A stretch of 64,000 nt of DNA, from positions 86,924,001-86,988,000 of the forward strand of contig OZ024745.1 in assembly GCA_964016885.1 (NCBI GenBank). Reading direction: 5' to 3'. Made by a program: the position numbers and the translations under genes. Under the pieces are notes generated by a model. That model did not search any database. It was not told the DNA's origin and saw nothing but the letters and a program-made list of their open reading frames with translations. This document shows, piece after piece, positions 1-38,783 of the stretch; the first letter of the stretch is position 1, and every line of letters begins with the position of its first letter. The stretch comes from Eledone cirrhosa (lineage: Eukaryota).

Positions 1-1969
1 GGCTAGAGTGTTAGCGTCGAGAACGGCACTGGACCAGTTCTTCGATGCGAAACACGAAGGCTGCGTGGTCAGAAGCTGGGCCCGAGTGGCGGAGGCGAAA
101 AGTGGCAACAAGTTCACGATTCGGTCTTTGAAAGAACAAAACGGACGTGTGCTACTTGAGCCCAAGCAAATGTGCGCGGTCTTTCAGCAGCAATTTGCGC
201 GACTGTTTGAGCAGAACGACGGCGAGCCGAACAAGGCAATGGACTTTAGTTAATACCTCAACGGCCTGCCGCGTCTCTCGAACATGGACGCCGAGTTCTG
301 CGAAAGACCGATCACGAACACTGAGATACGGGACGCTCTGGGCCGCTGAGGGAAACGCAAGTCACCCGGTCTAGATGGTCTACCCTATGAGTTTTACATA
401 GGCATGCCGGACTTGTTCTCTGGCGTCCTCGAAGCCGTCTACTGCAATTGGCAGCAGAACGTGAGAATTCCCAGTTCTGCAGGAAAGGGTGTAGTAACGC
501 TGATCAGGAAAGACGAGAACAAGGGGGACGAAATTAAGAACTTCAGGCCCATAACTTTGCTCAAAACCTGGTAGGGAAAGCGCAAAAAATGTGCAATCGC
601 GACCAGGTCCATACACGACAACCTCCACCTCATGCGATACATCATAGAGAGGGTGGGTAGTAAACCCGGCTTCGGTGGGGCTCTGATCAATTTGGATCAG
701 TTTAAGGCATTCGATAGGGTCGACCATCGATACTTGGAAACGGTTCTCAAGGCGGCCGGTTTCGGTCCCGTTTTCAGAGGATGGATCGAGGCGATGTACA
801 TCAGCATCTGCTCGAGGGTGAAGGTGAAGGGCTACTTATCGGAGCCGTTCGCAATCATGCGTTCTATTTTACAGGGGTGCCCTCTCTCCTCCATTCTGTA
901 TGTATTGACTCTAGAGCCACTACTGCGGAAATTGGAGCTGTTGCAGGGCATCTCTCTAGAACCGGGACTGCGCAAAGCGGCGTCGGCTTATGCCGACGAC
1001 ATGATGGTAATGGTGTCGAGCACTTCGGAAATCAAGGTGATCGGCAACTTACTGAAAGAATACGAAACGCTGACGGGAGCAAAACTAAACCCGGACAAGT
1101 CTGTCGGTTTGCAACTCGGTACGTGGAGAGGCAAACCGATGACGTCCGACAGCGTCGTTGGACGCTGGACGGACGGACCAGTGAAATTGCTCGGGGTCTG
1201 GTTCGGTCCAGACCGCCAGGTGGAGAAAAACTGGAACGTGGTCATGGCCAAGGTGTTTGCACTCACCCAGAAGTGGGCAGAGTGCAAACTGTACTTGAAA
1301 GGTCGAGCGGAGGTGGACGTGTCTAAGATGTACGCAGGACATTGAAACAGTCCTGCACGCAATTGTACACTTCCCGGGCGTAACCGACCTGTGGAACTAT
1401 GCAGAACAACTTCTGTCGCGTATGGAACAAATCCAGTTGACTGCGGAGTCCATAGTAAGGATCAAACCGCCAGCATCTTTCAAAAACGAAAGAGAGGCGG
1501 TTTTCCTCTGTACAGTGGCTATGGTGAAAGAACTTATATGGTGGACGAGATTGAGAGGACTGAGGACAGATCTCTTTCTCTCCGGGCAACAATTGATTCC
1601 CTTCTTTAAGTATCACTTTAGAAGGAGAATCAGAGTGGAGAGAGAGGCACTACACCCCAGTAAATTTACTGAAAGGTGGGTGAATGAAGCGAAAATGGCC
1701 CGAGTGATTGGGCCTTCTCTGTTTATAAGCCTGTAGGTTGAAGAAGAGAGCAAAAGGAAGAAGGGAACACTTGCACAGCACGCTCCTGGAGTTGAAGTTT
1801 GTTCTATCGACGGGGTATTAAACAACCCATTTGCGGCGCTTCTCCCCTATTGGGGATTTCGATTGTTGTAATTGTTTGTTTTTATATTTTTTACACGACT
1901 GTATGTAAAATCCCTGGTATGTCTTTGTATTGTCCCCTTTTCTTGTGCTCCCTTGTGGCAAATAAAGAA

Positions 1970-1970
<1 letters not shown>
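1..1970 (+). mobile_element. Tx1/L1-clade LINE, decayed ORF2 plus 3' UTR (5' end outside the window)
   Basis: ORF 632-1345 has RT motifs LDQFKAFDRVDH, QGCPLS and AYADD; C-terminal fragment at 1422-1736; stops and internal deletions; AATAAA at 1961 followed directly by (ATCT)n. Confidence 0.92.

Positions 1971-2056
<86 letters not shown>
1971..2056. repeat. (ATCT)n microsatellite between two tandem Tx1 elements
   Basis: Pure TATC repeat read directly. Confidence 0.98.
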
Positions 2057-2273
2057 AGACGTGTGTAACTTCGCGGAGAAGTTTCCGTTAATTTATGTAA
2101 GAAAAAAACGTGAGTTTTTAGTTAAATTTTATATCATTGTGTAACTTGACCCCCGTCTGAACCTTCAGGTGGTGGGTCAACTCATTTTCGCCCCTGCAGG
2201 GGCGGAATATTCATTTGAAAAATTTTTTCTCCATCGAATCTTGGAAAAAATGTTGTAAAGTTTTGATTACGTT

Positions 2274-4193
2274 ATGAACGCTGCGTCCAACGATAATGGT
2301 GGTGGAGAGGCGGTAAGACTACAAAGCTCGCAGTCAACAACGTCTTCTTCACTAGATACTATAGAAATGGAAAGACAAAATGAAAATATAAAAACGAATT
2401 CATATCCAAACAACACAAATGACACCAAACAGTTCAATGACAACAAAAATAGCAGCAACACCAATAATGATGATAAAAGCAACAATGATAAAAGCAACAA
2501 CAAAGAAAAAAATAAAGACAACACCAATAACACCAGCATCAAAGACAACAACAACACCAAGGAAAAGACGAATACTATCAACATCGGTGACAACAAGAAT
2601 AACAACAAGAATAACAACAATAATGACAACACCACCAATACGGATTCCACAAAGAAACCAAAAATCTCCTTTGCAGAGAAAGTTCAAAAGAAGGAAGAAT
2701 TGATATATCTCGACATAACAAATGCCGAACAACTTTTAAAGGACGCTAAGAGATATGTCACTTTCGAAAAAAATGGTGCTTTCAGCATCAATTCTCCGGT
2801 AGAAATTCGCAAGGAAACTGCTCTCAAAACGATAGTTTTTAGGACAGTTTCCAATTCTACCCGAAAACCAGTCCAATTGTCACAGAAAGAAATTGAACTG
2901 GTTTTCAAAAATTCAATGAATGATATTGCATTCATTCAAAGAAGCAAACTTTTTGGGAGTATTTCGGTACTCATGAAGGATCAATTGACGGCCCAAAATT
3001 ACTCTGTGTCGCCAATTGTATCCAACCTGTACACCTTTTTCCCTACATACATGGGAAAAAGGACACAAAAGATCAGAATCACGAGTGTCACACCAAAGGT
3101 GAACATATGGTGGATACTGTGCGGCTTCATCAATTTTGATGAAGACAGAATACTGTCAGTAGGAAAGTCCCCCAGAGATGTATTCAATGGGACTAGCATT
3201 GAAGTTCTGGTGCAAATGAGCCCAGAGCGAATAGCTATGATCCCACAGCGTGTACTCCTGGACGGACTCACCTACATAAACTTTTCGGTTGAGGGTAGGC
3301 GGCCTTCATGTTACCATTGCTTTAGCAGGGGTCACCTGAAGGCTTCCTGTCCTAAATTAATGAACCAAAAAAAGGCTCTTCTGCCAACACCCATCAAAAC
3401 AACACAACCACCAACACCACCACAACAACAACAACACCAACACACAAAAATAACCACAACAAACACAGTCCCACCCAACCCCACTCCACCTAAAACCACT
3501 GCAAAATCACATACAGACACAACAGCTCCCCAAGACATACCCCTCCCCAGTCACACAGACGATACAACAGATGAGGCTATCTCGCCATCACCCAGTGAAG
3601 ACGAGGGAGAACCCCATCGCTCGAAAAGAAAGAAAAGACATCACAAAAGCGATAAACCAGCAAACACTACCACAAACATACAACCACCAACACAAAAAAC
3701 AAAAACATCACAAACAAAACCCCCACCTCCTGAAAACAAAATACCTACAACAAAACGAAAGCACACACAAGAACTACAGACAAAAACAAACACAACACAA
3801 GAAAATTACACTTACACTTACATAAACACTGAAAACAAAACACTAATGGAGACTATCACGAACGACCCTTCGGTGAAAACCGAAGGGAAAACTTTCGCCC
3901 ACTCTATTAAAAATAGCAAAAAACTGAACCTAAATCTGATTAGGGTCCCTATACAAACTTATAGGTCCCTAAAAGAAACATTTCAGAAGGATGTGGGGAA
4001 TTCCTGCGTGAAACCACTCAACCGAGTCCTTCTCAAATGTCTCCCCACCCCAGACACCCCCATCCCACCAGACCCCACCCCACCAAACATCTGCGTCCCC
4101 ACCCCGCCGGAAACCATCACCCATCCAGAAAACCCCTCCAACACCCCCATGGAAATCGTGCGTCCTGGTCCCCAGGAGGCGAAGGGTGAGTGA
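2274..4193 (+). CDS. LINE ORF1, gag-like RNA-binding protein with a CCHC zinc knuckle (639 aa, open)
   Basis: Asn-rich N-terminus, VEGRRPSCYHCFSRGHLKASCP (CX2CX4HX4C), Pro/Thr-rich linker; lies directly upstream of ORF2. Confidence 0.88.
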   Translation: MNAASNDNGGGEAVRLQSSQSTTSSSLDTIEMERQNENIKTNSYPNNTNDTKQFNDNKNSSNTNNDDKSNNDKSNNKEKNKDNTNNTSIKDNNNTKEKTNTINIGDNKNNNKNNNNNDNTTNTDSTKKPKISFAEKVQKKEELIYLDITNAEQLLKDAKRYVTFEKNGAFSINSPVEIRKETALKTIVFRTVSNSTRKPVQLSQKEIELVFKNSMNDIAFIQRSKLFGSISVLMKDQLTAQNYSVSPIVSNLYTFFPTYMGKRTQKIRITSVTPKVNIWWILCGFINFDEDRILSVGKSPRDVFNGTSIEVLVQMSPERIAMIPQRVLLDGLTYINFSVEGRRPSCYHCFSRGHLKASCPKLMNQKKALLPTPIKTTQPPTPPQQQQHQHTKITTTNTVPPNPTPPKTTAKSHTDTTAPQDIPLPSHTDDTTDEAISPSPSEDEGEPHRSKRKKRHHKSDKPANTTTNIQPPTQKTKTSQTKPPPPENKIPTTKRKHTQELQTKTNTTQENYTYTYINTENKTLMETITNDPSVKTEGKTFAHSIKNSKKLNLNLIRVPIQTYRSLKETFQKDVGNSCVKPLNRVLLKCLPTPDTPIPPDPTPPNICVPTPPETITHPENPSNTPMEIVRPGPQEAKGE

Positions 4194-4226
4194 TCTCTTT
4201 TCCTCTTTTAACTTTTCAGCACCAAC

Positions 4227-7200
4227 ATGGCCAATATAAGAGTTGGATGTGTGAACGTACGCGGCCTGGGGATGCCCTGGAAACAGGGCAAACTCGTAAA
4301 CGACGTCAGGTCGCACAGTATGGATGTGGTAGCCATTTGCGAGTCCAGGATCCACGGCGAGCGACAGCTGTCCCCCATCTTCGATGACTTTGAGATCTAC
4401 GCATCTCTCTGTCAACCGGGGGGTGGGGGCGGAGTTGCCGTTTTGCTGCGGAAACACCTGGGCCTTGTAACACAGACGGTACATCTGGACCCGGTGGGTC
4501 GACTGGTGGTCCTAGACGTTGACGGTAGTGAAGGTGGAGCCTTCAGGCTGGTGGCCGCATATGCCCCATCCGGAACACCGCGGCCAGACTTCTTCAAACG
4601 TCTAGAGACTTTTCTGGGAACGTCCCGCTCCTTGCTTTTAGTGAGGGACTGGAATGGGATCCTAGATGCACGTTGGGACTATGTGGGAGCATGTCCCGAA
4701 AAAGGGTGGCGTAACAGCCTCAAACAGTTAATTGATCGATTTGACCTGGCCGATAGATATCGACTAGATTTTCCGACTGTGCCACTGTGGACGTGGACTA
4801 ATCGCTGCGGAACATCTAGATCATACCTAGATAGGGTTCTAGTTAGAAATAAGGATAGGGACATGTTAAGATGTCCACAAATGTTCATGGTTGCCTATTC
4901 AGATCACAAACTAGTGACCTGCATGGCCAACCTTGATAGAACCCATAGACAAGGACCCGATTACTGGAAGCTGAACTTGTCGTTACTGACAAGCAAAGCC
5001 TACAGTAGACGGATTAGCACTTTAGTTAAACAGCACTTGACAGGGGCCATTGTCAACAACAGATGGTGGTACTCTCTCAAGAGGGCAGTTAGATTAGACT
5101 CGATAGTTTTTAGTAAAGAATTAGCGTTAGATAGAAATAGAACCGAGAAGGAACTGGTAGATAAAGTAGAAGAGGCTATTAGAAGTGGCAACGTAGCCAG
5201 CGTGCTAGCAATGAGAACGGCCTTGGACCAGTTCTTCAACGAAAAGCACGAGGGCTGCGTTGTCAGAAGCAAAATACGTGCTCTGGGAAACGAGGGAGCC
5301 AAAATTGTTAGCTGGGCCCGAGTGACGGAGGTAAACATGGCAACAAGTCCACGATTCGGTCTTTGAAGGACCAAAACGGACGCGTGATACGTGAGCCGAA
5401 GCAAATGTGTGCGGCTTTTCAGCGGCAATTTGCTCAGCTGTTCGGGGGTGGGGCCGGGAGAGGCTATGAATTTCGGTCCATACCTCGACGGCCTACCGCG
5501 ACTCTCGGACAGCGAGGCAAAGTTCTGCGAAAAGCCGATTTCAATCGCAATCCCGACAAGATCCATATACGACAACCTCCACCTCATGCGATACATCATA
5601 GAGAGGGTAGGGTGTAAACCCGGCTTCGTTGGGGCCCTGATCAACTTGGATCAGTCTAAGGCTTTCGATAGGGTTGACCATCGTTACCTGGATGCGGTGC
5701 TCGAGGCGTTAGGCTTCGGACCCCTGTTCAGGGGCTGGATTGCTGCAATGCACAACAGCAACATCTACTCAAGGGTCAAGGTGAACGGCTACCTCTCGGA
5801 GCCGTTCCATATTACGCGATCCATTCGACAGGGATGCCCTCTCTCCTCCCTTCTGTACGTACTGAATCTCGAGCCACTACTGCGGAAGTTGGAGCTATTG
5901 CAGAGCATCCCTCTGGAACCGGGACTGCGGAAAGCGGCGTGGGCCTATGCCGACGACGTGACAGTAATGGTGTCGAGCACCTCGCAAATCGAGGAAGTCG
6001 CCACCTTACTGAAGGAATACGAAAGTTTCACAGGAGCGAAGCTGAACCGGGACAAGTCCATCGGTTTGCAACTAGGATCGTGGAGAGGCAAACCGATGCC
6101 TTCCGATGGCGTCGCCGGACGCTGGACGGAAGGACCGGTAAAGCTGCTCGGGGTCTGGTTTGGTCCGGACCTCCAGGTGGAGAAGAACTGGAACGCAGTG
6201 ACGGCCAAGGTGTTTGCACTCACCCAGAAGTGGGCTGAGTGCAAACTATCCTTGAAAGGTCGAGCGGAGGTGGCGAACACTTTTATAGCGTCCGCCATCT
6301 ACTACCGCTTGACCGTCGTGCCTTGTCCAGCCAAAACGCTCGCCAAAATGGAACGCGTGCTCTCCCAATTCCTTTGGAAGAAGCGGGCTCCTTTGGTGAG
6401 AAGATCCATCTGCTGCCAACACCCTTCTAACGGAGGGCTGGGGATGCCGTGGTTGACGATGCGCAAACAAGCGCTCAGGCTGCGGCATCTCTACGTATTC
6501 CTCACCGGACAACCGGTGTGGTCCTCGTTCGTGAGGCGAGCCTTCCCACGACTCGTCTCGCTGACCGAGCTGCAGTCCTGGGTCAAGCAAAGACCGAGGA
6601 AAATGGGCGACTGGCACATTGAATGTGCTCAGGCGCTCACAGCCCTCTGGCAGGCGGACCCGGCGATCAGTGGAGACTCCACTTCGTCATTCTATAGAGG
6701 GTTGATCCGCAGCAAGTGCGACGACGCGCTCGGTGAAACTCTAGGCGTAGAGGAAGATGAACTGGACAGTCTGTTCGGTAGGACCTTCCGCCCGGGACCG
6801 ATGGACAACTTCCAAAAGTCCCTGGCCTGGCAGTGCTACCGAGGAGCTCTACCAGTTCGAGACAAGCTCTACAGACATGGGCGCCCGGGCAGGGACCCTG
6901 CAAAAAATTCTGGCCGAGGTGCGTGCGAGACGAAGAAACCGTCGCGCACGCATTCATACACTGCCCGGGCGTCACTGACCTGTGGGGCTATGTGGAACGA
7001 CTATTGTCGCGGGTGGGACCAATCCAGTTGACCACCGCGTCCATTGTCATGATCAAACCGCCACCCTCCTTCAAAAACGAAGGAGAGGCGGTTTACCTTT
7101 GTGTGATAGCTATGGCGAAAGAGGTTGTATGGTGGACAAGGTTGAAAGGGCTGAGGTCAGACACCTTTCATCCGGCCAACAACTGATTCTTTTTTTCAAA

Positions 7201-7326
7201 TACCACTTTGGAAGAAGAATCAGGATGGAGAGAGAGGTGCTGTACCCCAGCAAGTTTTATGAAAGGTGGGTGAAAGTGGCGAGAATGGCCCGAGTGAATG
7301 GGCCTTCTCTCTATATCAGCCTGTAG
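4227..7326 (+). pseudogene. Tx1 ORF2 (AP endonuclease + reverse transcriptase), frameshifted and internally deleted
   Basis: APE motifs NVRGL, AICES, YAP, DWN, SYLDR, SDH; RT motifs LDQSKAFDRVDH, RQGCPLS, YADD; split into 4227-5366, 5391-7031, 6833-7186 and 6982-7326; ~0.3 kb missing near 5540 relative to the 28.5-kb and 34.4-kb copies. Confidence 0.92.
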
Positions 7327-7566
7327 GTTGAGGAAACGGAGGAGGAGAGGAAAGGAGTACAAACTCTTCGTACTCCTGGAGATGAGGGTTGCACATTTTT
7401 TTCGGGGGTATGTGTTACCCATATAAACTGTCTCCCCCTATTGGGGAAAATCGATTAACTTTTTAAATTCCATTTGTGATAACATTTTACACGTTTTTAT
7501 TGTATGTAAACTTCCCCCTTTGTATTTGTCCCCTTCTTTTGTGCCCCTGTGGCTAATAAAGAAACA

Positions 7567-7604
<38 letters not shown>

Positions 7605-7680
7605 CCTCTCTATCTATGTTTTTAACTATCCATCCATACATACATCTATCTATCCATCAATCCATCTATCTACATATCTG
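7567..7680. repeat. (ATCT)n, pure then degenerate
   Basis: Direct reading. Confidence 0.9.
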
Positions 7681-7684
7681 TGGA

Positions 7685-7716
<32 letters not shown>

Positions 7717-8022: not shown

Positions 8023-8483
8023 CAGAGGTTCTTAAACCTTTGGGGCCACCGCCCCCTCACGACCACGTAATACCCTCAGCTCCCCCAACCCTATTTCCAG
8101 AGAGACCTGCCTACATGCAAATTGTAAATAATATATAATAAATACAATCGTTAATTTATATATAATAAATAATTGTTTCTACTTTAGGCACAAAGCCAGC
8201 AACTACCAAGTACATTAGTGGCACTTTATTTTATCGACCCCGTAAGGATGAAAGGCAAAGTTAACCTCAGCGGAATTTGAACTCAGTCCGTAAAGGGACG
8301 TAACTGTGCTGCAAAGCATGGCGTCCGACTCTCTACCGATACTGCCAATCCACCATATTATATTTATATATATGTATAATTTGGTATTTAACATACTATT
8401 ATATCATCTCTACCGGCTTCAATGCCCCCTGGACCATCTCAACTCCCCCAGTTGACTGGTAGCGCCCATTTTGTGAAACGCTG
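8023..8483. mobile_element. hAT (Charlie-like) MITE
   Basis: Ends CAGAGGTTCTTAAAC and TTTTGTGAAACGCTG; 8-bp TSD TTCTATTG/TTCTATCG; the empty site TTCTATCG is present once in the uninterrupted unit at ~8604. Confidence 0.8.
8168..8355 (-). mobile_element. tRNA-derived SINE nested in the MITE
   Basis: A box TGGCAGTATCGG, B box GAGTTCAAATT, core GCCTTTCATCCTTACGGGGTCGATAAAATAAAG (resembles the MetaSINE core as I recall it). Confidence 0.88.
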
Positions 8484-13765: not shown

Positions 13766-13950
13766 CGTGGATTGGCAGTATCGGTGGAGGGTCGGACGCA
13801 ATGCTTTCCAGCATAGTTACGTCCCTTTACGATCTGAGTTCAAATCCCGCCGAGGTTGACTTTGCCTTTCATCCTTACGGGGTCGATAAAATAAAGTACC
13901 AGTAATGCACTGGGTCATTGCTGGCCTTGTGTCTAAAGTAGAAACAATTA
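13766..13950 (+). mobile_element. tRNA-derived SINE (a partial copy also at 14130-14225)
   Basis: A/B boxes and the same core as the other copies; absent from the homologous 53.4-kb region. Confidence 0.9.
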
Positions 13951-14115: not shown

Positions 14116-14339
14116 GAACAGTATTATTATTTGCCTTTCATCCTTACGGGGTCGATAAAATAAAGTACCAGTAATGTACTGGGTTATTGCTGGCCTTGTG
14201 CCTAAAATAGAAACAATTATTATTAATATTATTATTATTATTATTATTCTCTACATTCCTTACATCAAACTAAAATATGTTGACAATCTTTTAATAATGT
14301 CTTCCTTGTGAAATGTTTGGTCTTGTTTTGCTTAACTAA

Positions 14340-18931: not shown

Positions 18932-19072
18932 CGAGAGAGAGATAGAGATTGCTCATACACATACGCATATTCACACACACATACACACACACACCTATAT
19001 ATGGAGAGAGGAGAAGAAAGTGATAGCGAAGGAAATAATCTTTATCTTATTATTATTATTATTATTATAATC

Positions 19073-19625
19073 CGTGTAGGACGGATCCAGCTATCAGCTC
19101 AGTCCATCGTGAGGATTGCCCGCCCTCCTCCTTTAGCCGGGAAGGGCAGGCAGTTTTTATCTGTCTGGTGGCCATGGCGAAAGAGATAGTTTGGTGGACA
19201 CGTTTGAAAGGGCTGAAGACGAGCACTTACCTCTTCGGTGATGCCCTGATTAACTTTTTCAAATTTCATTTGAAAAGGAATATCAGAGTAGAGAGGTAAG
19301 TGCTCTCTTCCCAGCATTTTGTTGAAAGATGGGTGAGAGAAGCAAGAATGGCCCGTACTCTGAGTACGTATATGTAAATTAAAGGTGGAAAACTGGGAGA
19401 GGGCACTTGCCCTGGTGGTCAGGGTCACTGTGGCCTTTTAATGGGCTTTCTCCACAAATGTCCCTCCGAAGTCTCCCCCCTATTGGGGAATTTTTCATTG
19501 TTATTTTTTTTATTACATCCTCTGTTTTTTTTTACACGCAGAAATGCCCATTAGTACCGTCCTGTATTGTCCTGTACTGTCCTTAATGTCAACTTTATGT
19601 AAACCCTTGTGGTTAATAAAGAAAG

Positions 19626-19626: not shown

Positions 19627-19661
<35 letters not shown>

Positions 19662-19662
<1 letters not shown>

Positions 19663-22600
19663 TGCATTTATCTTGCTTTATGTTCATACGAGTTATCACC
19701 AAGTCAGAACCAGTGACCTCAAGAGACAACAAGGTCCGCCATGTTCAAGAAAGAACATACATACACACACATGCATCCTTAGTGTTTAGACTTGTGATGT
19801 ACTTATATTGACAGGATCTTCCTTAGTATATGGGCAGTTCCCATTAGTACTATCTTTTGTATTTCTCCTATACGCGGGTTTCCTGGGATTTGCGATAAGT
19901 AGTCGTTAGACCCCTTAGGTATCATTCCCAGAGCGCCTACAACCACTGGTATTGTTTTAGTTCTCAATTTCCATATTTTTCCAATTTCTATCTCCAGGTC
20001 CTTATACTTGCTCAATTTTTCAAATGTTTTTATAGATACATTCTTGTCTATTGGAACAGACATATCAATTAGCAGGCATACCCTCCTTTGAAAGTCCTTC
20101 AATATTATATCAGGTCTATTTGCATCTATTTTTCGGTCTGTTTGAGATGTGATCTTTTTCAAGTATGGGAGGTGGTTGATGCTCCCACCAATTCTTTTGA
20201 TGGGGCAGGTCAAAATGCTTACACATTATCCAATGTATGTATTGTGCAGCTGTGTCATGCCTGTTTAGGTATTCGGTTGGAGCTATAGGACTGCACATTG
20301 AAATTATATGGTCAATGGTCTCTGGTTGTTTTTTGCATACACGGCATAATGGGCTGCACCCATTTTTTATTATGTTGGCTTGGTAATTTTTTGTTGGCAG
20401 ACACTGATCTTGTGCCGATATAATCAGTCCTCCAGTCTCCGATTTCAGTCCAGAGGATGCCAACCACTGATGGGTTAAAGTTTTGTCAACATCAGGATTG
20501 TTAGCTCGCTCTGGGTATTTTCCATACAGAGGCTTTTCTTGCCATTTCTTAGCCAGTTTCTGTAGCAGTTCTTTCTTTGCAGTTACTTTTACCTGCTTTG
20601 CTTTTTCTGTGTTTTCCATTTCAGCAGTAAATGGGACTTCTGAAATTTGTATTCCATTACTGTATCTTTGTGCATCTTTTGTAATGGAATATGATATTTT
20701 GGTGCTTTCGTGTTTCAAAACGAGTTTGATCATCCAATCATGTGATTCCCTTAGATATGTGGATAGTCCAATTGTTGCAGTTTTCAACGCAATGTCTAAC
20801 TGGATTAACCCACGTCCTCCTTCTTTCCTAGGGAGATATATTCTATCTATGTCTGCCTTAGGGTGATGCATTCTGTGCATGGTTAATAATTTTCGGATTT
20901 TTGTATCGAGCCTACGGATCTCTGTGCTTGACCAGTTGATGACATTGTAACTGTAGGTTACTACTGGTATGGCAAGCGTGTTTATGCCATCGATCCTATT
21001 CCTTGCATTCAATTCCGTTCTTAAGATTGCTCTGACTCTGCGGTAACATTCCTTCCTTATCCTTTCCCTCATTGTCGAGTGCTTGATTCCGTCTCCTTCA
21101 CAAACACCTAGATATTTGTAAGTTTTTTTTTGATCAAGCTCTCTTTCCCCCGATCAAGATTAATGTCTGAACTCTTCAGCAGCTTTCCTCTGGTGAACGT
21201 TGCTTTGGTGCATTTATCCAGTCCAAACTCCATTTTAATGTCATCACTGAACTGCTTCACAGTGGATAATAGCCCTTGCAATTGTTCATCATTTTTTGCA
21301 AATAGTTTCAGGTCATCCATGTAGAACAGGTGATTAATGGTTTTGTCATAGACTCTATATCCATGTTTTGTTTCTTTGAGCATTTTACTTAATGGTATAA
21401 GTGCGATGCAGAATAAAAGCGGTGATAAAGAGTCACCCTGAAAAATTCCACAATTAATATTAACTTCTCCAGCTTCCAGTGAATTTGTTTCACTATTCAA
21501 AAGGAGTGTCGTTTTCCATGTCTTCATACTGAATGACAAAAACCTCCTGACAACGGGGGATATTTTGAAAATCTCTAAACATTTTCCAATCCAACTGTGT
21601 GGCAAACTATCGAATGCTTTTTTATAATCTATCCAAGCAATCGATAGATTTTTGTGTCTATTATGACAATCTTCCAGTATCATTTTGTTAACCAGAAGCT
21701 GATCCTTACAGCCATATGAGCCTCGTTTACACTCTTTCTGCTCAATGGGAAATAGGTCATTTGTTATCAGGTGGTCATATGTGTATTCAGTTAGGACTGA
21801 TGTTAAAATTTTATACATTGTGGTCAAGCAGGTTATCGGTCTGTAATTTTTGGGATTGTTTGTCTCATCATTCTTCGGTAGCAGGAATGTAATGCCGTTA
21901 ACTAGCCATGATGGTATCTTTTCTGGCTCCTTAACTATTTCATTGTAAAGTTGGGCTAACAGCTCATGAGACTCTGTGAAGGCATTTATCCAAAAGTTTT
22001 GTATTTTGTCTTTTCCTGGGGATTTCCATTTGCTGGTTTTTCTTAGAGCCAAGCGCAACTGTTCAACTGTTATATTTTCCCATGTTTGTTCTTCAAGGTG
22101 AGCTGTTTCTTTCATTTGTCTGTCTATCCATAGGGCATGTATGTTATGAACTTTTTCTTCGGCCCAGATCTTTTCCCAGAATTCTTGCACTTCCTCCTTG
22201 GGTGGTATTGATTTAGCAGTTATTGTTGACTTACCAATTTTTCTGTAGAAGTTTCTTTGGTTGTTTTTGAACATATTATTTTCCTTATAGAATCTAGATC
22301 GTTTTTCAAAGCGCCTTATACGAGCAGCTTTGGCCGACTCTTTTTGCTTGATTGTTTCTATCAGCATGTCTATGTCACATGTTGATCTTATACTGTACTT
22401 TTTTTTCAATTTTCTAAGTTTAGTTTGTTTAACATGTTCACCTACTTTATAGTTTGTTAAAATTTCTATGTCAGATCGGAGAAGGTTTATTTGGCGATTG
22501 ATGTTATCTTGCCAAGTAGATTTCTTGTGGGAATTCCTTTGTTTTTTCATCTTCACTCCACATAAGTGAGTGGTGACTTTAGCCGATGCATAATAGAGAT

Positions 22601-24525
22601 GATTTAAGTCAGTAATGTTTAGTTTGTTTGTGATGATAATGTTTTTGAGAATTATGTTAGTCTTGTGTATTATCTTTTGGTTCTGTTTGGAGTTCTGGAT
22701 CTTAGGGAGGGTGTCTCGTTGCCCCATGTCAGATTCTTTCATTTTCATCCATTCGATCATAATTTCATCCTTCAAGTTGGCAAGTTCATTCTCATTCATT
22801 TCTTTATCCTTTACGATCTCATTATTTTCATTTGGAGTTTCATCCTGAGCATGCACTCCCTCCACTTTTTCGCTCCTTTCTTTAATTTGTTCTGTTGCCA
22901 GTGATTCCGCCCCAACCCTGGGATTCGAAGTGTTACAGTTTACTTCGTTTTCACTGACACATGTTTCATTTTCCCTTCGCTGACTTTGTGCTACTAGCTT
23001 GATCTGATCAATTTCTATATCAGTTAGTAACTTTTTTCTTACAATATTTCTTCGTATATTGGCTAGTTTGTTACTGTCAATATAGACTCTGTTTTCGGGA
23101 TGTTTCTTTTTCCAGTTGATATATGTCTGTTCTGTATTCGATGTATTTGATGGGTAGTACATGGCAGTGTAGAAAGCCTCAAGGACTTCTTTATTATCTT
23201 CCCTTGACCATTTTTCTCTCTTTTTCTTTGGATTTCTTGGTGGTGAGCATGGAGGGCCAACAGTAGGAGTATTCCGGTTATGGGAGGTCTCCAGCTCCGA
23301 AGTGATGGGAAGGTTTGAACCATTAGCTGATTTTTCGACCCCAGTCTGGTTCCTCTCTGAGGGACGCGGCCCTTTTTTACCCGGGTGACGGCCGATCCGG
23401 TATGAGATTTTATCATTAGACATTTACTTTATTTTGTCGCGTTTTATCCTTATCCGCCAAGGGGTATCATTTCGTGTTACCACTTCTAGAACGAGTGTCA
23501 ACCAAGACTAGAGGGGTCGTTCTCCCCTAGAGACATGGCTATTCCCCGCCGGCCGCCATCCCGGTATTTCTTGGTCACGGGGTTTTCTTTTTGTTGTTTT
23601 TTTTAAAATTGTTATTATCATGAGTGGTTCCTTAATGTGAGCATTGCGTGGCTTAAGAATGAAATTATTAATAATTGTCTCCACTCCAGGCACAAGGCCA
23701 GCAATCACATAGTGCATTACAATAATATAATATACTTTTTGTTGTAGTTGGCTGTTATTGTTGTTGGCTATGTCGGTGGTGGTGCCGGGGCTTTTTATAT
23801 TGTTGGTGAGGAAGGGGTGAGCCAGCAGTCCCATAATTGTTGATGTAGACGTTTGGCCGGTGGCAAGGTCACCAAGTCAATCTATTTATATCTTTTGCTA
23901 GCCTCTCTCTTGTCTAGTGATACCGCCACCTTCCCTTTTCTCTCTCAAGTTAACAGGGGAATAGTGTCAGTAGCATTGAATGAGTAGTGGCGGCGATGAT
24001 GGATGCGGTGGGGTGGTGGCAGCGGTGGTGTTGTGGTTACTGATATAGTATCTATGAGTTTGTGTTCGTATGTTTAATATATATTTTTATTATATTTTGT
24101 GTTGACATATTCCCGTAAAATTTGAATTAAACATTTTTTAAAATTTGAGACAATAATAATAGTAATTATTATTATGATGCTGGTGAAATTGCCGTTATCT
24201 GGCTGTTATATTTAGTGTGATGGGATAGGTAGTGTATCAAGTTTCTGGTGTTGGTGAAATTGAAATTGCTGCTATTTGGCTGTTCTATATAGTGTAGACA
24301 GAGGGTGTTTTGTTCCATTTATAACCATTTTCTTTTTTTGAATACAAAATATATAATACAAAATTGAATATTTGAGCGATACAACAATATAATATGGATC
24401 CGAAACTTTATGGGACCTCATTCGGTGCATTTATGCAACATTTGTGCTAAGAATTGTTCTTTCACAATTGATATAAATATGTTAAAAATCAAAAACTTAC
24501 GGGAGCAATTTCGTGACGTTCTACC
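19662..24525 (-). mobile_element. R4/Dong-type RLE LINE, family A, probably full length
   Basis: One long frameshifted ORF with RT, CCHC and RLE; ~1.1-kb putative 5' UTR; (TAA)n at both ends. The 5' boundary is inferred from the repeat. Confidence 0.85.
19803..23423 (-). pseudogene. Dong ORF (RT + CCHC + restriction-like endonuclease), two frameshifts
   Basis: NYRPITCL, WIDYKKAFDS, GIFQGDSLSPLLF, HLFYMDDLK, CRVCKKQPETIDHIISMC, NRPDII...IDMSVP...KLSKYKDL. Confidence 0.92.
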
Positions 24526-24616
<91 letters not shown>

Positions 24617-26210
24617 GCTGCATTTATCTTGCTTTATGTTCATACGAGTTATCACCAAGTCACACCCAGTGACCTCAAGAGACAACAAGGTCCGCCATGT
24701 TCAAGAAAGAACATACATATTCACACATGCATCTTTAGGTGTTTAGACTTGTGATTTACTTATATTGACAGAATCTTCCTTAGTATATGGGCAGTTCCCA
24801 TTAGTACTATCTTTTGTATTTTTCCTATACGCGGGTTTCCTGGGATTTGCGATAAGTAATCATTAGACCCCTTAGGTATCATTCCTAGAGCGCCTACAAC
24901 CACTGGTATTGTTTTAGTTCTCAATTTCCACATTTTTCCAATTTCTATCTCCAGGTCCTTATACTTGCTCAATTTTTCAAATGTTTTTATAGATACCTTC
25001 TTGTCTATTGGAACGGACATATCAATTAGCAGGCATACCCTCTTTTTAAAGTCCTTCAATATTATATCAGGTCTATTTGCATCTATTTTTCGGTCTGTTT
25101 GGATGCTAAAGTTCCACAAGATTGCGATGTGATCTTTTTCTAGTATGGGAGGTGGTTGATGCTCCCACCAATTCTTTTGATGGGGCAGGTCGAAATGCTT
25201 ACACATTATCCAATGTATGTATTGTGCAGCTGTGTCATGCCTGTTTAGGTATTCGGTTGGAGCTATAGGACTGCACATTGAAATTATATGGTCAATGGTC
25301 TCTGGTTGTTTTTTACATACACGGCATAATGGGCTGCATCCATTTTTCATTATGTTGGGTTGGTAATTTTTTGTTGGCAGACACTGATCTTGTGCTGATA
25401 TAATCAGTCCTTCAGTCTCCGATTTCAGTCCAGAGGATGCCAACCACTGATGGGTTAAAGTTTTGTCAACATCAGGATTGTTAGCTCGTTCTGGGTATTT
25501 TCCATACAGAGGCTTTTCTTGCCATTTCTTAGCCAGTTTCTGTAGCAGTTCTTTCTTTGCAGTTACTTTTACCTGCTTTGCTTTTTCTGTGTTTTCCATT
25601 TCAGCAGTAAATGGGACTTCTGAAATGTGTCGTCCATTACTGTATCTTTGTGCATCTTTTGTAATGGAGTATGATCTTTTGATGCTTTCGTGTTTCAAAA
25701 CGAGTTTGATCATCCAATCATGTGATTCCCTTAGATATGTAGATAATCCAATTGTTGCAGTTTTCAACGCAATGTCTAACTGGATTAACCCACGTCCTCC
25801 TTCTTTCCTAGGGAGATATATTCTATCTATATCTGCCTTAGGGTGATGCATTCTGTGCATGGTTAAGAATTTTCGAATTTTTGTATCGAGCCTACGGATC
25901 TCTGTGCTTGACCAGTTGATGACATTGTAACTGTAGGTTACTACTGGTATGGCAAGCGTGTTTATGGCATCGATCCTATTCCTTGCATTCAATTCCGTTC
26001 TTAAGATTGCTCTTACTCTGCGGTAACATTCCTTCCTTATCCTTTCCCTCATTGTCGAGTGCTTGATTCCGTCTCCTTCACAAAGACCTAGATATTTGTA
26101 AGTTTCCTCTTGATCAAGTTCTCTCATCACGTTCCCCCGATCAAGATTAATGTCTGAACTTTTCAGCAGCTTTCCTCTGGTGAACGTTGCTTTGGCGCAT
26201 TTATCTAGTC
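24617..26210 (-). mobile_element. Dong family A, 5'-truncated tandem copy
   Basis: ORF 24760-26130 is near-identical to the 19.8-21.1 kb protein and lacks its RLE-region frameshift; (TAA)n on both sides. Confidence 0.92.
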
Positions 26211-26216
26211 TTATTA

Positions 26217-26281
<65 letters not shown>

Positions 26282-26496
26282 GGTTGGTGAAACCACGCTT
26301 CTTATCGCCTCCAGTCTTTTTCAACGTTTTACCTCTTTTTCAACCGTTCTAAACCTTTTATTCAAGTTTTAAATTTGATAAAAGTTTAGAAGAAGTGACC
26401 CACCTAATACAGGGTTTCACTAGTAAATAATACGGCACCCCTTTACGGGGTGTCGTATTCGTATTTGTGTAAAAATACTTTTTGAAAAATTCCAAC

Positions 26497-28496
26497 ATGG
26501 ATAACACAAAAGAGAGAGAGAGCGCTGTCAGACAACACAGAGAGACGGAGACTTTATCAGCATGTCAACAAGACAGCGTTCCAGCGGAGGTAAATATAAA
26601 CGAAAATATTACAAAGGAAAAAAAGATTGTTACAGATTTAAAATTAACAAATATTTCTAACACAAACAACACCAACAATAACACCAACAACATCACCAAC
26701 AACAACACCAAAAATAACAGCGGTAAAGTCGAGAACGCCAATAACAAAAATAACAGCGGTAAGGTCGAGAACGTCAATAACAATGACAATAACAACAGCC
26801 ACAACAACAATAATAGTAGGAACAGTATCAACAAAAACAACAATAATAACAACAGCCACAATAACAGTAACAGCAGCAGCAGTATCAACAAAAACAACAC
26901 CAACAACTGTTCCAGCGAAAAGAACAACAATGACACCGATACCTGTAATAGCGACCTCAGCACCACCAGTAAGACCAATAGCGGCAGCAATAGTGGTGCT
27001 GCTGAAAAAGGGACCACTTCCTTTGCAGGTGTCGCCCGAAATATCGAGACTGTGTTAGTCACAGAGGAGGAGATGGCAGTCGCAAGGGCCATGGTTACAA
27101 GAAGCGCAAATAGAGTTTCCCTGAAACCTCCACCCGATTTTTTCAAGGATCAGCAGCTACGAACGGTGACTTAAGCAAAATCTCACATCGAGTGGAGAGA
27201 GCCACGGAGGCTCAAATCCAAAGGCCTTGGGGTGCGTCTGGGCACGCAAAACCCACATCACCCGAGGCAGAAAGTACGCCACAGTAGACGTACTTTTCGC
27301 CACCCCCCTGGAAGCAAAGTCTCACTCTTTGGAAACCCTAAAGAGTGAGGAGTTAGTCTTGGTGCCCTCCTACTGCGGGCAGAAAATTGTGAGGGTCAAA
27401 GTGACACAGGTCCCACCCGACATGCCCATACCTTGGCTGGCCGCGTCTGTCCTTGTTGGAATTGAGAACAGGGCGACCATGCTGCAAGTAGAAAAAATAG
27501 GGAGAGAGAATTGGTCAGGTATAGGCATGCAAATGCTTATACAAACTGACCAGGAATGTATCGAGGCTATCCCCGATATCATAGACTTTGAGGAAGGACT
27601 CCAACTCCCTATAAGTGTAGAAGGAAGACGGCCAAAATGTTATCTCTGTGGGTCGAAAGGTCACCTCAGGGCCTTTTGCCCGCAGAAGACACCGAAGAGG
27701 GCCCCTCTCCTTCCAATAACTGGTCCGCTGCTACCAAGAGCAGGACAGGCAACAAACGAAGAAGCCCCTTCTACGGTGAGTAGGAGGGCAACGTCCGTAG
27801 CACCCGTACTAAGACCACGGATAACTAAAGCAGCATCATCAGTAGCGGCAACACCAATAGCTACATTGGAAATAGCTACACCAGCAACAGCATTGCCGAA
27901 GAGGGCTCCACTACCACCACCAACAGCCGTGGAGCACATACCCCTCCCAGACGCCACAGAATCCGACATGGAGTTTGAGGCGGGAGTGACGTGGCAAACA
28001 GTCTGCCACAAAAAAACAAAAAACAATAAAACCCTTAGATTCACCCTCCAAAAGCGAAGGCATACAAAGAGGGGTAAAGGCAGCAAGGAAACTTGCAGCA
28101 ACACCACCACAAACACCAACAACGCAAACACGACAAGACACGCACACCAAACAGCAACAAGAAGAAAACGGCAACAAAATCACCCCTCCCCCCAAAAAGT
28201 ACACAGCCATAAAGATAGCAAAAAAAGAACTCATAAAATATATAAAGCAGCATACAGACATCACGGAAAAAAATTACTACACCCCACCAGCACCAAGAAT
28301 TCTCCCGACAAACATAAGCATCATCGAAATCTCATTAGAACAATACAAACCTTTAAAACAAAAACTCCCAAACGCAGTTGGAGACTTCAGAGGGACGGTT
28401 ACCAAGAGGATATACACTGACATCCTCTTGGAAACACCCATGACCAGCGAAAGGGACGATTCTACTGTCCCTTCACCACACGTACAAGGTAAGTGA
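26497..28496 (+). pseudogene. Tx1 ORF1, frameshifted
   Basis: Asn-rich N-terminus, LVPSYCGQ, VEGRRPKCYLCGSKGHLRAFCP; my translation of the last frame ends ...HVQGK*. Confidence 0.85.
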
Positions 28497-28528
28497 CCCT
28501 TTCTCATTTGCCCCATTTCTCATCCAAC

Positions 28529-31500
28529 ATGGCTGTACTCAGAATAGGCAGTATAAATGCACGTGGCCTGGGGTCATCTTGGAAGCAGGGTCACCTGCTC
28601 AATGACCTCAGGTCACTAAACATAGATGTGGTGGCTATCAGTGAAACCAGAATCTCCGAGGCACGGGCCTTCGCACCGATATTCGGCGGCTACGATGTAT
28701 ACGCATCTCCCAGCCGTCCAGGACCGGGGGGAGGGGTTGCCGTCCTTTTTCGGAGAGGCTTGGATCTCGCGATACGGGCTATCTTCCTGGACCCAGAAGG
28801 TAAGTCGGTGGTCCTGGACTTGACCGGCAGCGAAGGCAATGCTTTCAGGCTAGTAGCCGTCTACGCCCCAACAGGGGCAGGACGGTCAGATTTCTTAAGA
28901 CGTCCAGAGACCTTTCTTGGAACGTTCCGCTCTTTAGTCTTAGTGGGCAACTGGAACGGTATCTTGGATGCACGCTGAGATTGTGTGGGGCTAGTGGATA
29001 GGGGAGGAGGGTGCAAGAGCCTCACCAACCTGCTCAGACGTTTTGAACTGTCTGACAGGTATCGACTGGATCACCCGAATATGCCAATATGGACATGGAC
29101 AAACCGCATCGGGTCATCCAGATCGTATCTAGTTAGGGTATTCTGCAGGGAACTAGATAAGGCTAGTATAAGTTGTCCACAATTTAAAATAGTCGACTAC
29201 ACAGACCACAAATTTGTGATCTGTGAGATCGACATAGACAGACTTCATAGACAAAGTCCTGGTTACTGGAAGCTGAACGCGTCTTTCCCGGCGCGCAAGG
29301 CCTACAGAGACCGGATTAGCGTATTAGTTAAGCGGGTGTTGACGGGAGCGGTCGTCAACAACAGGTGGTGGTTCGCCCTGAAAAGCGCAATTAAAGTAGA
29401 GTCGATTAGGTTTAGCAAAGGAGTAGTGATAGAGGAAAATAGAGTAGAGGGAGAGCTAGTCAGAAAGCTAGAAGAGGCGTTTAGAACAGGCATCGCGACC
29501 GACGTGCTTGCGGCGAGATTGGCACACGACCAATTCTTCAACGCAAAACACGAAGGCTGCGTTGTCAGAGCTAGATCGCGTGCTCTGAAACACGAGGGGA
29601 CAAAAGCCGTCCAATGGGCTCGGGTGGCAGAGGCGCGACGTGGCATTAAAGCCACAATTCGGTCTTTGTCTGACCAAAACGGGTGCGTGATGCTCGAACC
29701 CGAGCGGATATGTGAAGCTTTTCAGCAGCACTTTGCTGAACTGTTCGGGAGCGGCGGCGGCCCGGATCGGGACATGGACTTCTGTGCATACCTCGACGGA
29801 CTGCCTCGGCTCTCGACGACCGCAGCACAGTGTTGCGAAAAGCCAATAACAGCCGGTGAAATACGGGAAGCGATGGCTAACTGCACAAGAGGTAAATCAC
29901 CAGGTTTAGATGGTCTGCCCTACGAGCTTTATGCATTTATGCCAGACTTGTTCGGTGACCTCTTGGCAGACGTCTACTGCAACTGGCAGCAGAACGGGAG
30001 CATTTCCAGTTTTGTGAGCAGTGGCGCATCTGAGAAAGACCCGAACAAGGGGGATGTTATTGATAATTTCAGGCCCATAACTCTGCTAAACGCAGAGTTC
30101 AAGATTTTGGCCAAGGTGTTAGCAACGAAGTTGGCACTTGTCGTCAAGGGTCTAGTGGGAGAGGCGCAGATATGCGCAATCCCGGACAGATCCATACACG
30201 ACAACCTCCACTTCATGCGATACATCATAGAGAGGGTGGTTAAGGAACTTGGCAAGGGTGGGGCCCTGATCAACTTGGATCAATCCAAAGCATTCGATAG
30301 GGTCGACCATCGGTACCTGGCGGCGGTCCTCGAGGCAGCCGGTTTCGGGCCCGTTTTCAGGCGTTGGATCGCAGCAATGTACAGCGACACCTGCTCAGTT
30401 GTGAGGGTGAACGGTCACCTGTCGCAGCCGTTCAGCATCATGCGCTCAGTCCGCCAGGGTTGTCCCCTCTCGTCCCTCTTGTACGTATTGGCTCTCGAGC
30501 CGTTACTGCACAAACTGGGGCGATGAGGGGCGTCCCACGTGAACTAGGATGCGGGAAATCCGAGTCGGCTTACGCTGACGACGTCACCGTAGTGGTGTCG
30601 AGAACCAGACACGTCCAGATGCTCGGCACCGCTCTCAAGGAATACGAAACGGTGACAGGAGCAAAGATAAACCAGGAAAAGTCGGTGGGCTTGCAGCTAG
30701 GCACCTGGAGAGGCAAGTCCATGCCGTCCGACAGCGTCGTGGGGCGTTGGACGGACGGACCGGTTAAATTGCTCGGGGTCTGGTTCGGACCGGACCTCCA
30801 GATGGAGAAAAACTGGAACGAGGTGACGAGGAGGGTGGCCTCCCTCACCCAGAAATGGGCTGAGAGGAAGCTGTCCCTGAAAGGCCGGGCGGAAGGGGCG
30901 AATGCGTACATCCCATCCGTCATCTGCTACCACCTCACCGTCGTCCCTTGCTCCAGCCCAACTCACACCAAAATGGAGCGCCTCCTCTTCCGCTTTTTGT
31001 GGAAGGGACGCGCTCCCATGGTCAGACGATCCATCTGCTGTCAACACCCGTTGCGTGGAGGACTGGGCGTGCCATGGCTGATGATGCGCAAACATGCGCT
31101 GAGGCTGCGACATCTCTGGTGCTTCCTTGATGGTGAACGGGTGTGGTCGCCGTTCGCCAGGCACATTTTCCCCCAGCTCGTCTCCTTGACGGAGCTGCAG
31201 TCCTGGGTCAGAAAAAGACCGAGGGATAGCGCTTGGAAACTGGAATGTCTCCAGGCGCTCACTGCCCTCTCCCAGTTGGGCACCAGTATCGGTGGAACAT
31301 CTACCTCGGCGTTCTATAGAGGACTAGTGGAGGGGAAGAGCGACGACGTTCTCGGAGAGATCCTGGGCGTCGAAGAAGATCAGCTGCTTGCTCTCTTCCG
31401 GAGAACTTTCAGCCCGGGGCCTATGGATAACTTCCAAAAATCCCTGGCCTGGCAGTGCTACCGGGGAGCGTTGCCGGTTCGAGATAAGCTCTACAGGCAC

Positions 31501-31923
31501 GGAAGTGCCGTCAGCCGAGCCTGTCCGAGTTGCGCGCATAGCAACGAAACCGTTGTGCACGCACTCGTTCAGTGCCCAAGCATTGCTGACATGTGGAGCT
31601 ATGTCGAACAGTTGCTGTCACGTGTGTGACTGATCCGGTTGTCGACTGAGTCCATTGTGCAGATGGTCTCGCCGTCTTCCTTTGAGGAGGAACGGCAGGC
31701 GGTTTTCATCTGCCTGGTGGCCATGGCGAAAGAGATTGTGTGGTGGACAAGTTTAAAAGGATTAAAGACAAATACTTTCCTCTTCGGCGAATCCCTGATT
31801 AACTTTTTCAAGTTTCACTTGAAGAGGAAAATCAGGGTGGAGAGGCAAGTGCTGCTTTCTAGCAAGTTTGTTGAAAGGTGGGTGAATGTAGCGAGAATGG
31901 TCCGAGTGAATATACGTCTGTAG
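28529..31923 (+). pseudogene. Tx1 ORF2 (APE + RT), disrupted
   Basis: NARGL, ISETR, YAP, KSPGLDGLPYE, NFRPITLLN, KAFDRVDH, YADD, CPSC...H..C. Confidence 0.92.
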
Positions 31924-32194
31924 TTTGAGGGATGGAAAAATTGAGTAGTCAGGGTGGCCATGGTCTTTTGTGTGGTTTTCGCCACGAGTAACCCTCGGAG
32001 GTTTCCCCCTTATTGGGGAATTTTTCATTGTTTCAATTTTCATTTTATTGTTTATATATATATATATGTTTTATGTCCTTTTTCTTTTCTTATATAAATA
32101 ATAAAAATATTTACACGCACAAAACCCACATCGTACCGTCCTGTTCCGTCTGTGATGTTTTTCTTGATGTCAGCCCTTGTGGCCAATAAAGAAA

Positions 32195-32226
<32 letters not shown>

Positions 32227-32436
32227 GGCGACCTACGTAGTAAATCGTATCATCGTGAGCTCCGCAAAGGTTTGTTATTTCCATTTGTTAAAAATTGCCA
32301 TTTATGAAAATTTTTTATTGTTAACTATATATAAGCGCACATACATTGTTTTCCGAAAAGGACATCCAAAAAGATTGGGGCCTTGAGCCCAAAATTTAAA
32401 CTTTTATGATTATCAAAAAATTTCTTTGAAAAAAAA

Positions 32437-34398: not shown

Positions 34399-34432
34399 GT
34401 GGTCTTTCCCATCTTTTCCACTCCATTTCAAC

Positions 34433-37400: not shown

Positions 37401-37825
37401 GCCGGGCATGTCCGAGATGCGCACAGGGCGACGAAACCGTCCTGCACGTACTCGTCCAGTGTCCGAGCATTGCTGACTTGTGGGTTTATGTCGAACACCT
37501 GCTGTCACGTGTAGGACGGATCCAGCTATCAGCTGAGTCCATCGTGAGGATTGCCCCGCCCTCTTCCTTTTGCCGGGAAGGGCAGGCACTTTTTATCTGT
37601 CTGGTGGCCATGGCGAAAGAGATAGTATGGTGGACACGTTTGAAAGGGCTGAAGACGAGCACTTACCTCTTCGGTGATGCCCTGATTAACTTTTTCAAAT
37701 TTCATTTGAAAAGGAAAATCAGGGTAGAGAGGGAAGTGCTCTCTTCCCAGCATTTTGTTGAAAGATGGGTGAAAGAAGCAAGTATGGCCCGAATGAATGG
37801 GCCTTCTCTGAGTATGTGTCTGTAA
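34433..37825 (+). pseudogene. Tx1 ORF2 (APE + RT), disrupted
   Basis: NARGL, GDWN, SYLDR, NFRPITILN, YADD, CPRC...H..C. Confidence 0.92.
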
Positions 37826-38081
37826 ATTAAAGGTGGAAAACTGGGAGAGGGCACTTGCCCTGGTGGTCAGGGTCACTGTGGTCTTTTAATGGGCTTTCTC
37901 CACAAATGTCCCTCCGAAGTCTCCCCCTATTGGGGAATTTTTCATTGTTATTTTTTGTTACATCCTCTGTTTTTGTTTTTACACGCAGAAATGCCCATTT
38001 GTACCGTCCTGTATTGTCCTGCACTGTCCTTAATGTCTACTTTATGTAAACCCTTGTGGTTAATAAAGAAATCATTATTAT

Positions 38082-38718: not shown

Positions 38719-38783
<65 letters not shown>

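Follow-up and report, generated by a model that had tools for sequence, protein, structure and literature searches.

Two related lineages of L1/Tx1-type LINEs in the genome of Eledone cirrhosa, one located in (ATCT)n and the other in (ATT)n microsatellites

A stretch of 64,000 nucleotides from Eledone cirrhosa (assembly GCA_964016885.1, contig OZ024745.1, positions 86,924,001 to 86,988,000, forward strand; here called the window) contains several long interspersed elements (LINEs) of the L1/Tx1 type, and the question that it raises is whether related elements of this type use different microsatellites as targets. An original prediction had noticed copies ending in (ATCT)n, here named lineage A, and copies lying in (ATT)n, here named lineage B, and had proposed that they were sister families that differed in target. 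Our analysis showed that, throughout the genome, the two lineages keep to their respective repeats and to one orientation relative to them, with junctions that are precise to the base.

In the window, two plus-strand copies of the ATCT lineage, A0 and A, were arranged head to tail at the left end, with (ATCT)n between them and on their outer sides, as revealed by reading of the sequence and by Tandem Repeats Finder. A0 was represented by its 3′ two-thirds (1-1969), which ended in ...GGCAAATAAAGAA and contained an internal deletion of ~630 nt and in-frame stops. The 5′ part of A0, upstream of the window, began directly after (TCTA)31 (locus L271, 4859-4983), and A0 was therefore flanked by the repeat on both sides too. 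A perfect (ATCT)21.8 array (1970-2056, 100%) served A0 as its 3′ tail and A as its 5′ flank. Element A (2057-7563) was complete at both ends; it started with AGACGTGTG, its 3′ untranslated region (UTR) extended to GGCTAATAAAGAA, and it was followed by a decaying (ATCT)/(TATC)n flank (7564-7713, with the repeat array at 7567-7713 and 77% matches), so that the ends of A0 and A were as predicted. The first open reading frame (ORF1) of A (2274-4193) carried a putative CX2CX4HX4C knuckle at about 3310-3351, and ORF2 started at the ATG at 4227, with the apurinic/apyrimidinic endonuclease-like (APE) domain at 4227-4946 and the reverse transcriptase (RT) domain plus the C-terminus at 5388-7031. About 300 nt were deleted near 5540, between the linker and RT, and A also had frame breaks.

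The ATT lineage was represented by four plus-strand copies. A 5′-truncated B2-type copy of 557 bp (19069-19625), 93% identical to the 3′ end of B2, was located between (TTA)7 (19047-19068) and (ATT)12 (19627-19662). The full-length element B1 (26282-32196), which started with GGTTGGTGAA and contained in-frame stops, followed (TTA)24 (26211-26281) and was separated by (ATT)10 (32197-32226) from the full-length element B2 (32227-38078), which started with GGCGACCTACG and had a frameshifted APE domain. A 5′-truncated B3-type copy of 634 bp (38084-38717), ending in GGCTAATAAATGAAATC, was followed by (ATT)22 (38719-38783). The four copies said to lie between (ATT)n were thus found, two of full length and two truncated, with bounds of the (ATT)n type, except that the joint of B2 and B3 (38078-83) consisted of ATTATTA only, the sole weak case among the B flanks. 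The APE starts predicted for A, B1 and B2 coincided with the ORF2 start codons at 4227, 28529 and 34433. All copies of A, A0 and B in the window were defective.

To read the flanks genome-wide, two probes were taken from each of A, B1 and B2, one covering its initial ~220 nt and one its final ~240 nt; each probe gave 626-1678 first-look candidates, of which 40 were scored and the best 30 loci used, the window's own copy included. Among these loci, the last 30 bases before the full-length 5′ end held two or more perfect ATCT units in 29/30 loci for A and three or more ATT units in 30/30 for B1 and 30/30 for B2, and the repeat of the other lineage was found at 0/90 of the 5′ ends. Random 5′ flanks, which the original prediction had named as a refuting observation, were therefore not what the genome contained. 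The register was also fixed. The A junction read TCTATC|AGACG in 27/30 loci, with TCTATT in two and TCTATG in one of the remaining loci, and the B junction read ATTATT|GG in 28/30 B1 and 30/30 B2 loci, while these best-match copies were 96-99% identical to one another. On the 3′ side, the lineage's own repeat followed 26/30 A, 28/30 B1 and 25/30 B2 ends. The mark used for Kibi- and Koshi-type families in the available sections of PMC4494074 is that >20% of copies are flanked by one and the same microsatellite at both ends, and A, B1 and B2 all lay above it. In 5′-truncated A copies, a hand count gave 21 of the 27 readable junctions with two or more ATCT units in the adjoining 30 bases, and the truncation points varied.

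The 3′ ends gave the same picture in a sample listed by position. The predicted AATAAA(T)GAAA end was confirmed. The 3′ motif TGTGGNNAATAAAGAAA, which is common to all lineages, occurred 31,460 times (16,005 + 15,455) in the 3.0-Gb assembly, against 17 occurrences (4 + 13) of the reversed motif used as the control. The first 90 motif places on contig C1, taken by position and not by score, were assigned to a lineage from 55 nt of 3′ UTR and to a tail class from the first 30 nt downstream. Among 49 A-type ends, 34 were followed by at least two ATCT units, 0 by at least three ATT units and 15 by other sequences; among 35 B-type ends, the corresponding numbers were 0, 30 and 5, and among six unassigned ends they were 1, 2 and 3. 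Cross-type tails were thus absent in the 84 assigned ends (0/49 and 0/35), and no family was found in both repeat types, as had been anticipated. Because of the genome-wide counts, the association of motif and repeat is not a matter of chance.

Target-site duplications (TSDs) were legible for some short A copies located at the margin of a short array, the B arrays being too long to read. Five were obtained, of 16 bp (TATCTATGTGTGTGTG, L032), 14 bp (TATCTATCTGCCTA, L052), 13 bp (TATCTATATCTCA, L053), 11 bp (TATCTATCTAG, L036) and 10 bp (TATCTATCTA, L035). All five opened with TATCTAT immediately after the element end ...AAAGAAAT(A/T)(T), and their far ends lay 10-16 bp on, in whatever sequence was there. 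A start in register together with an end set by distance is the signature of target-primed reverse transcription.

These results suggest that the lineages very probably sit in their own microsatellites because the first-strand nick and the priming take place in register inside the repeat. The APE-type endonuclease would nick the bottom strand of the target, which reads (GATA)n or (AAT)n, and the freed 3′ end would pair with repeat units that the element RNA carries at its own 3′ end, 7-9 nt past the conserved AATAAA. The second cut would follow 10-16 bp downstream, set by distance, so that in long arrays both flanks would still be repeat. We infer that the choice of the target is divided between the endonuclease and the RNA tail.

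Several observations weigh against this explanation. The 15 of 49 A-type 3′ ends classed as other showed a single clean ATCT unit at best, or (TC)n, (TA)n or no repeat at all; most of them retained one TATCT unit, followed by (TA)n, (TC)n or unique DNA, and the association is therefore strict in kind and not absolute in extent. No ATCT was present at 6 of the 27 truncated A junctions (L038, L046, L048, L050, L054 and L059), and among about 10 true B 5′ truncations, judged by eye, six had clear ATT upstream, two were marginal and two had none. (Another 15 of the 25 B junctions defined by BLAST proved by eye to be alignment breaks within rearranged copies and were excluded.) The TSD set consisted of five copies of one family. 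Two further points came from the proteins. The APE domain, relative to RT, was no more diverged between the lineages (57/72%) than within lineage A (70-72/81%), and the counterpart of the minor-groove loop of the human L1 endonuclease (L1-EN) differed at only 2 of 8 residues between the lineages.

The ORF2 proteins, which the original prediction had called clearly homologous, were only moderately close. The amino-acid identity of A and B1 was 57% in APE (238 aa), 61% in the linker and 70-72% from RT to the C-terminus, compared with 72% (70-72%) in APE and 81% from RT to the C-terminus for A and A0. ORF1 and the UTRs gave no alignment between the two lineages. A switch of target signalled by excess divergence of APE was not seen, as APE changed faster than RT within and between lineages alike. 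In a four-way comparison of APE, 118 of 249 positions were invariant and 33 were fixed by lineage. The positions were related to human L1 by profile alignment to L1 ORF2p together with the accessible text of the L1-EN/DNA paper (PMC8565326), a mapping that is approximate. Position 152, with Tyr in A and Cys in B (Y152C), was aligned with L1 Arg155, a phosphate contact, and the loop 115-119 was aligned with the L1 Asn118 loop. Position 194 at the tip of the hairpin, matched by loop length to L1 Pro197, was Cys or Ser in A and A0 and Ile in B, and the hairpin was otherwise conserved as TNRxG(T/S)SRS. With so small a difference in the hairpin loop, the RNA tail may be a further determinant of the target. 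The AlphaFold model of APE had a mean predicted local distance difference test score (pLDDT) of 73.5, with values <50 at 148-161 and 189-199, the two loops of interest, and the lineage-fixed residues can therefore not be placed on the DNA-binding surface. The original prediction had proposed the APE domains as a natural contrast for specificity residues. The contrast exists, in the form of the 33 positions, and could separate endonuclease specificity from RNA-tail pairing; APE alone may not make the choice. In the available part of PMC8565326, the L1-EN co-crystal structures have few base contacts, and the recognition of DNA sequence by the endonucleases of APE-type LINEs is so far poorly understood.

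The strongest alternative, though an unlikely one, is that the RNA tail and not a loosely specific endonuclease chooses the target, with priming only where the nicked end pairs with (AUCU)n or (AUU)n, so that a change of target would begin with the capture of a new tail. The near identity of the hairpin loop in both lineages agrees with this, as do the TATCT unit that A-type copies retain after AAAGAAA(C/T)(A/T) even without an array at the site, the start of the TSDs in register with that unit, and the second cut in unrelated sequence in the 5′-truncated copies L032, L052 and L053. However, not one of the 84 assigned ends combined an A-type 3′ UTR with an ATT tail or the reverse, the lineage-fixed APE differences include the position aligned with L1-EN Arg155 (Tyr vs Cys) and position 194 (Cys/Ser vs Ile), and the fixed register of the full-length 5′ junctions suggests a second cut that is aware of sequence. 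If the RNA tail were the chooser, a LINE could shift its genomic niche through a few swapped tail bases, and A-lineage elements would make their own landing pads, with a fresh (ATCT)n tail at every insertion.

The arrays upstream of the 5′ ends were walked at each of the 30 loci for A, B1 and B2 and had median lengths of 89, 33 and 46 nt, respectively. For A, the array started at another Tx1 3′ end in 19/30 loci (20 by eye) and otherwise in unrelated DNA; the upstream Tx1 neighbours were often of a different subfamily, ending in GGTAAATAAAGAA or GGCAAATAAAAGAAAC. The corresponding numbers were 6/30 for B1 and about 10/30 for B2, where 12 BLAST rows were found and two were discounted as short spurious matches. 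The frequency of such starts in A, and the head-to-tail arrays in the window itself, might be taken to mean that the repeat is only a 3′ tail carried by the element, and that 5′ repeats and arrays arose by unequal crossing-over or segmental duplication between tails. This is very improbable, since 10-11/30 A and 24/30 B1 upstream arrays begin in unrelated DNA or the tail of a short interspersed element (SINE), neighbours in an array belong to different families (A0 by A, with 74-84% nucleotide identity; B1 by B2 by B3), truncation points vary with the repeat at the junction, and TSDs cross the array boundary. Neither shared duplicate flanks beyond the arrays nor near-identical array neighbours were seen at these loci. 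The sequence beyond the upstream array differed from locus to locus, and several B insertions had landed in the (ATT)n at the end of a SINE (...GCCTAAAGTAGAAACA). B1 and B2 were 81% identical in nucleotide sequence, and the divergence of array neighbours implies that the tandem stacks arose from successive insertions into a target that was growing. A elements land largely in tails from earlier A-lineage copies, and since every insertion leaves a new tail, A arrays are likely to seed more insertions. Least credible is random insertion followed by survival or accumulation only in harmless, microsatellite-rich DNA, which would agree with the copies that lack a repeat, but passive retention explains neither the base-precise register, nor the fixed orientation to the repeat strand, nor the strict use of one repeat per lineage among copies that are 96-99% identical.

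Nick and priming in register inside the repeat thus remain the preferred explanation, and the elements to which it applies are, by their sequence, L1/Tx1-type LINEs with APE, RT and a zinc finger. The Pfam analysis of ORF2 gave matches to Exo_endo_phos (E 9.8e-07, above cutoff), RVT_1 (E 3e-18 to 6e-20) and zf-RVT (E 4.5e-08), in the order of APE, RT and C-terminal zinc-binding domain that characterizes the L1/Tx1 group. The APE-RT region matched human L1 ORF2p in a profile comparison (E 5e-32), and the predicted APE model appeared closest to the human L1 endonuclease (template modeling score, TM, 0.78-0.80). ORF1 of B1 had a weak zf-CCHC match below the Pfam cutoff (E 0.0073), and ORF1 of A, which reads CYHCFSRGHLKASC, had no Pfam match. 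A splice-donor-like GT(A/G)AGT was located over the ORF1 stop, 30-40 nt ahead of the ORF2 ATG, in 3/3 full-length copies of the window (4186-4191, 28489-28494 and 34395-34400).

The relationship of the lineages was analyzed with an RT tree of 73 rows, none of them a Repbase or L1 reference, built by a quick IQ-TREE run with SH-like approximate likelihood ratio test (SH-aLRT) support and midpoint rooting. A and A0 formed one clade (98) and B1 and B2 another (98), and both were placed in one clade of 11 rows (99) that also held a protein of Argonauta hians and unnamed database proteins, with no resolution of its internal order. Outside this clade were other cephalopod-type proteins and a fish group, including one protein that its source names ‘Transposon TX1’ (P0097, 34% identity); the A and B elements lay in the cephalopod clade, and the fish proteins lay across the midpoint root. 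The two lineages thus share one clade and may be sister families, as predicted, with a switch of target possible in either direction. One protein labelled by its source as from a Herbaspirillum metagenome-assembled genome (MAG) (P0006) was 63% identical to the C-terminus of the LINE ORF2 and fell inside the cephalopod clade; it is probably host DNA that was binned into a bacterial MAG.

Some further observations concerned the ATCT repeat and lineage A. The 3′ UTRs of A-lineage copies were in some loci followed next by (TC)n (L186, L227 and L233) or (TA)n (L197), which could be due to mutation of the repeat, off-target insertion or a further sub-lineage. Runs of (TC)n were interspersed in many ATCT arrays. 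Arrays of (AGAT)n without an adjoining Tx1 copy were present upstream of the window (L271, 892-936 and 1100-1123; one of them (AGAT)11), and not every GATA/ATCT array in the genome is therefore occupied. Contigs from runs X5 and X6 (labelled organisms B and C) matched the 3′ region of A (window 7150-7553) with only 2-5 differences per ~190-230 nt, which indicates near-identical A copies under other organism labels.

The (ATT)n arrays of the window were shared with a second kind of LINE. This element (19663-23423, minus strand) matched RVT_1 and not Exo_endo_phos in Pfam, and its 3′ end AAGATAAATGCA adjoined (AAT)n on its own strand; the (ATT)12 array at its tail was also the tail of the truncated B2-type copy, and the two met tail to tail. 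A second, 5′-truncated copy (24616-26210, minus strand), likewise with RT and no APE domain, had (TAT)30 (24526-24615) on its tail side. Of the 15 distinct genomic ends with AAGATAAATGCA, 14 continued into (AAT)n; the 3′ probe gave 14 first-look candidates and missed the second window copy, and these counts are no measure of abundance. The (AAT)n after AAGATAAATGCA identifies the LINE as Dong-like, and the strand that it uses is not that of Tx1-B but the opposite one. Within the window, every B copy was on the plus strand and both Dong-like copies on the minus strand, and tail-to-tail meetings of Tx1-B and Dong-like copies were also seen at L272 and L277. The C-terminus of the copy at 19663-23423 was degraded, and the full-length relatives P0123 and P0125 contained a C-terminal CX2C..HX4C (CCHC) and the RPD..D..K motif of a restriction-like nuclease. 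Features of the Dong/R4 group were thus found: RT without APE, a restriction-like nuclease motif (in the relatives) and (TAA)n at the 3′ side of the insertion. Two repeat families were observed directly after (ATT)n arrays, one starting with GAATGCCATGGTTGACGGAGG... (L125, L146, L161, L162, L166 and L176) and the other with GTTATTGTTATTCCTTGAATCTCAGTCATTGATG... (L123, L124, L156, L160, L172, L188 and L196). Both are possibly (AAT)n-tailed on the other strand and partners of the Dong-like LINE.

Copies of a SINE were found at 8171-8365 (minus strand), 13767-13949, 14130-14218, 39782-39964 (minus strand), 40791-40972, 40981-41121 and other places. The SINE had the head GGTGGATTGGCAGTATCGGTAGAG, and its 3′ end CCTTGTGCCTAAAGTAGAAACA(ATT)n resembled the Tx1 3′ motif CCCTTGTGGNNAATAAAGAAA; the SINE may be mobilised by Tx1-B. 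The SINE was rejected as a strict dweller in (ATT)n because the 10 window copies had short ATT tails only, mostly with no ATT at the 5′ side. Elsewhere in the genome, Tx1-B copies were often located in the tail of the SINE.

The principle of a microsatellite-specific Tx1 element is already known, and the ATCT and ATT targets and the host appear to be new. A Tx1 family specific for (ATCT)n or (ATT)n was not found in published papers, a search that did not extend to Repbase Reports, which could hold one. The annotation of Octopus vulgaris lists 13 recently active L1-Tx1 and five Dong-R4 families (PMC13282606, Table 1), probably of the same superfamilies as the window elements; no insertion specificity is described in the main text available from that paper, where the word ‘target’ is absent and the single occurrence of ‘microsatellite’ is in a figure legend. 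In the available text of another octopus repeat annotation (PMC8967140), ‘microsatellite’ occurs 0 times and no targets are described. Human L1 ORF2p and its endonuclease (PDB 1VYB, 7N8S and 8UW3) share the APE fold and target-primed reverse transcription with TSDs, but the identity is only 18%, and L1 has TTTT/AA as its target and poly(A) as its tail, with no microsatellite in either role.

The closest parallels are Kibi in (TC)n and Koshi in (TTC)n, Tx1-clade families of teleost fish described by Kojima and Fujiwara in 2004, as cited in the accessible parts of PMC4494074 and PMC3812793; the original prediction had rightly named them as known cases. By these descriptions, on which the comparison is based, Kibi and Koshi resemble A and B as APE-type LINEs that each occupy one microsatellite, with members differing in the repeat, but their targets are pyrimidine-only, unlike ATCT and ATT in a mollusc. 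In the crocodilian Tx1-1_Crp group, a preference for (TTCC)n/(TTTC)n was obtained from tabulated flanks with a threshold of >20% (same portion of PMC4494074); A and B far exceed this threshold and differ in repeat units and host, and here two lineages with unrelated repeats occur in one genome. The copy number is also very high, as indicated by the 31,460 3′ motifs: two related lineages with tens of thousands of copies in total use unrelated repeats, with no crossover seen, and a sizeable share of the ATCT and ATT microsatellites in this genome is probably made of retrotransposon tails or landing pads. Dong, of the R4 clade, is (TAA)n-specific and includes a snail copy, according to the available sections of PMC3812793. 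It uses the same microsatellite as Tx1-B, and a Dong-like LINE was found in the same arrays of the window, but Dong is from an unrelated clade, in which the nuclease is restriction-like and APE is lacking, and its tail is (AAT)n as against (ATT)n in Tx1-B. Two unrelated LINE clades thus use one microsatellite on opposite strands in the same genome.

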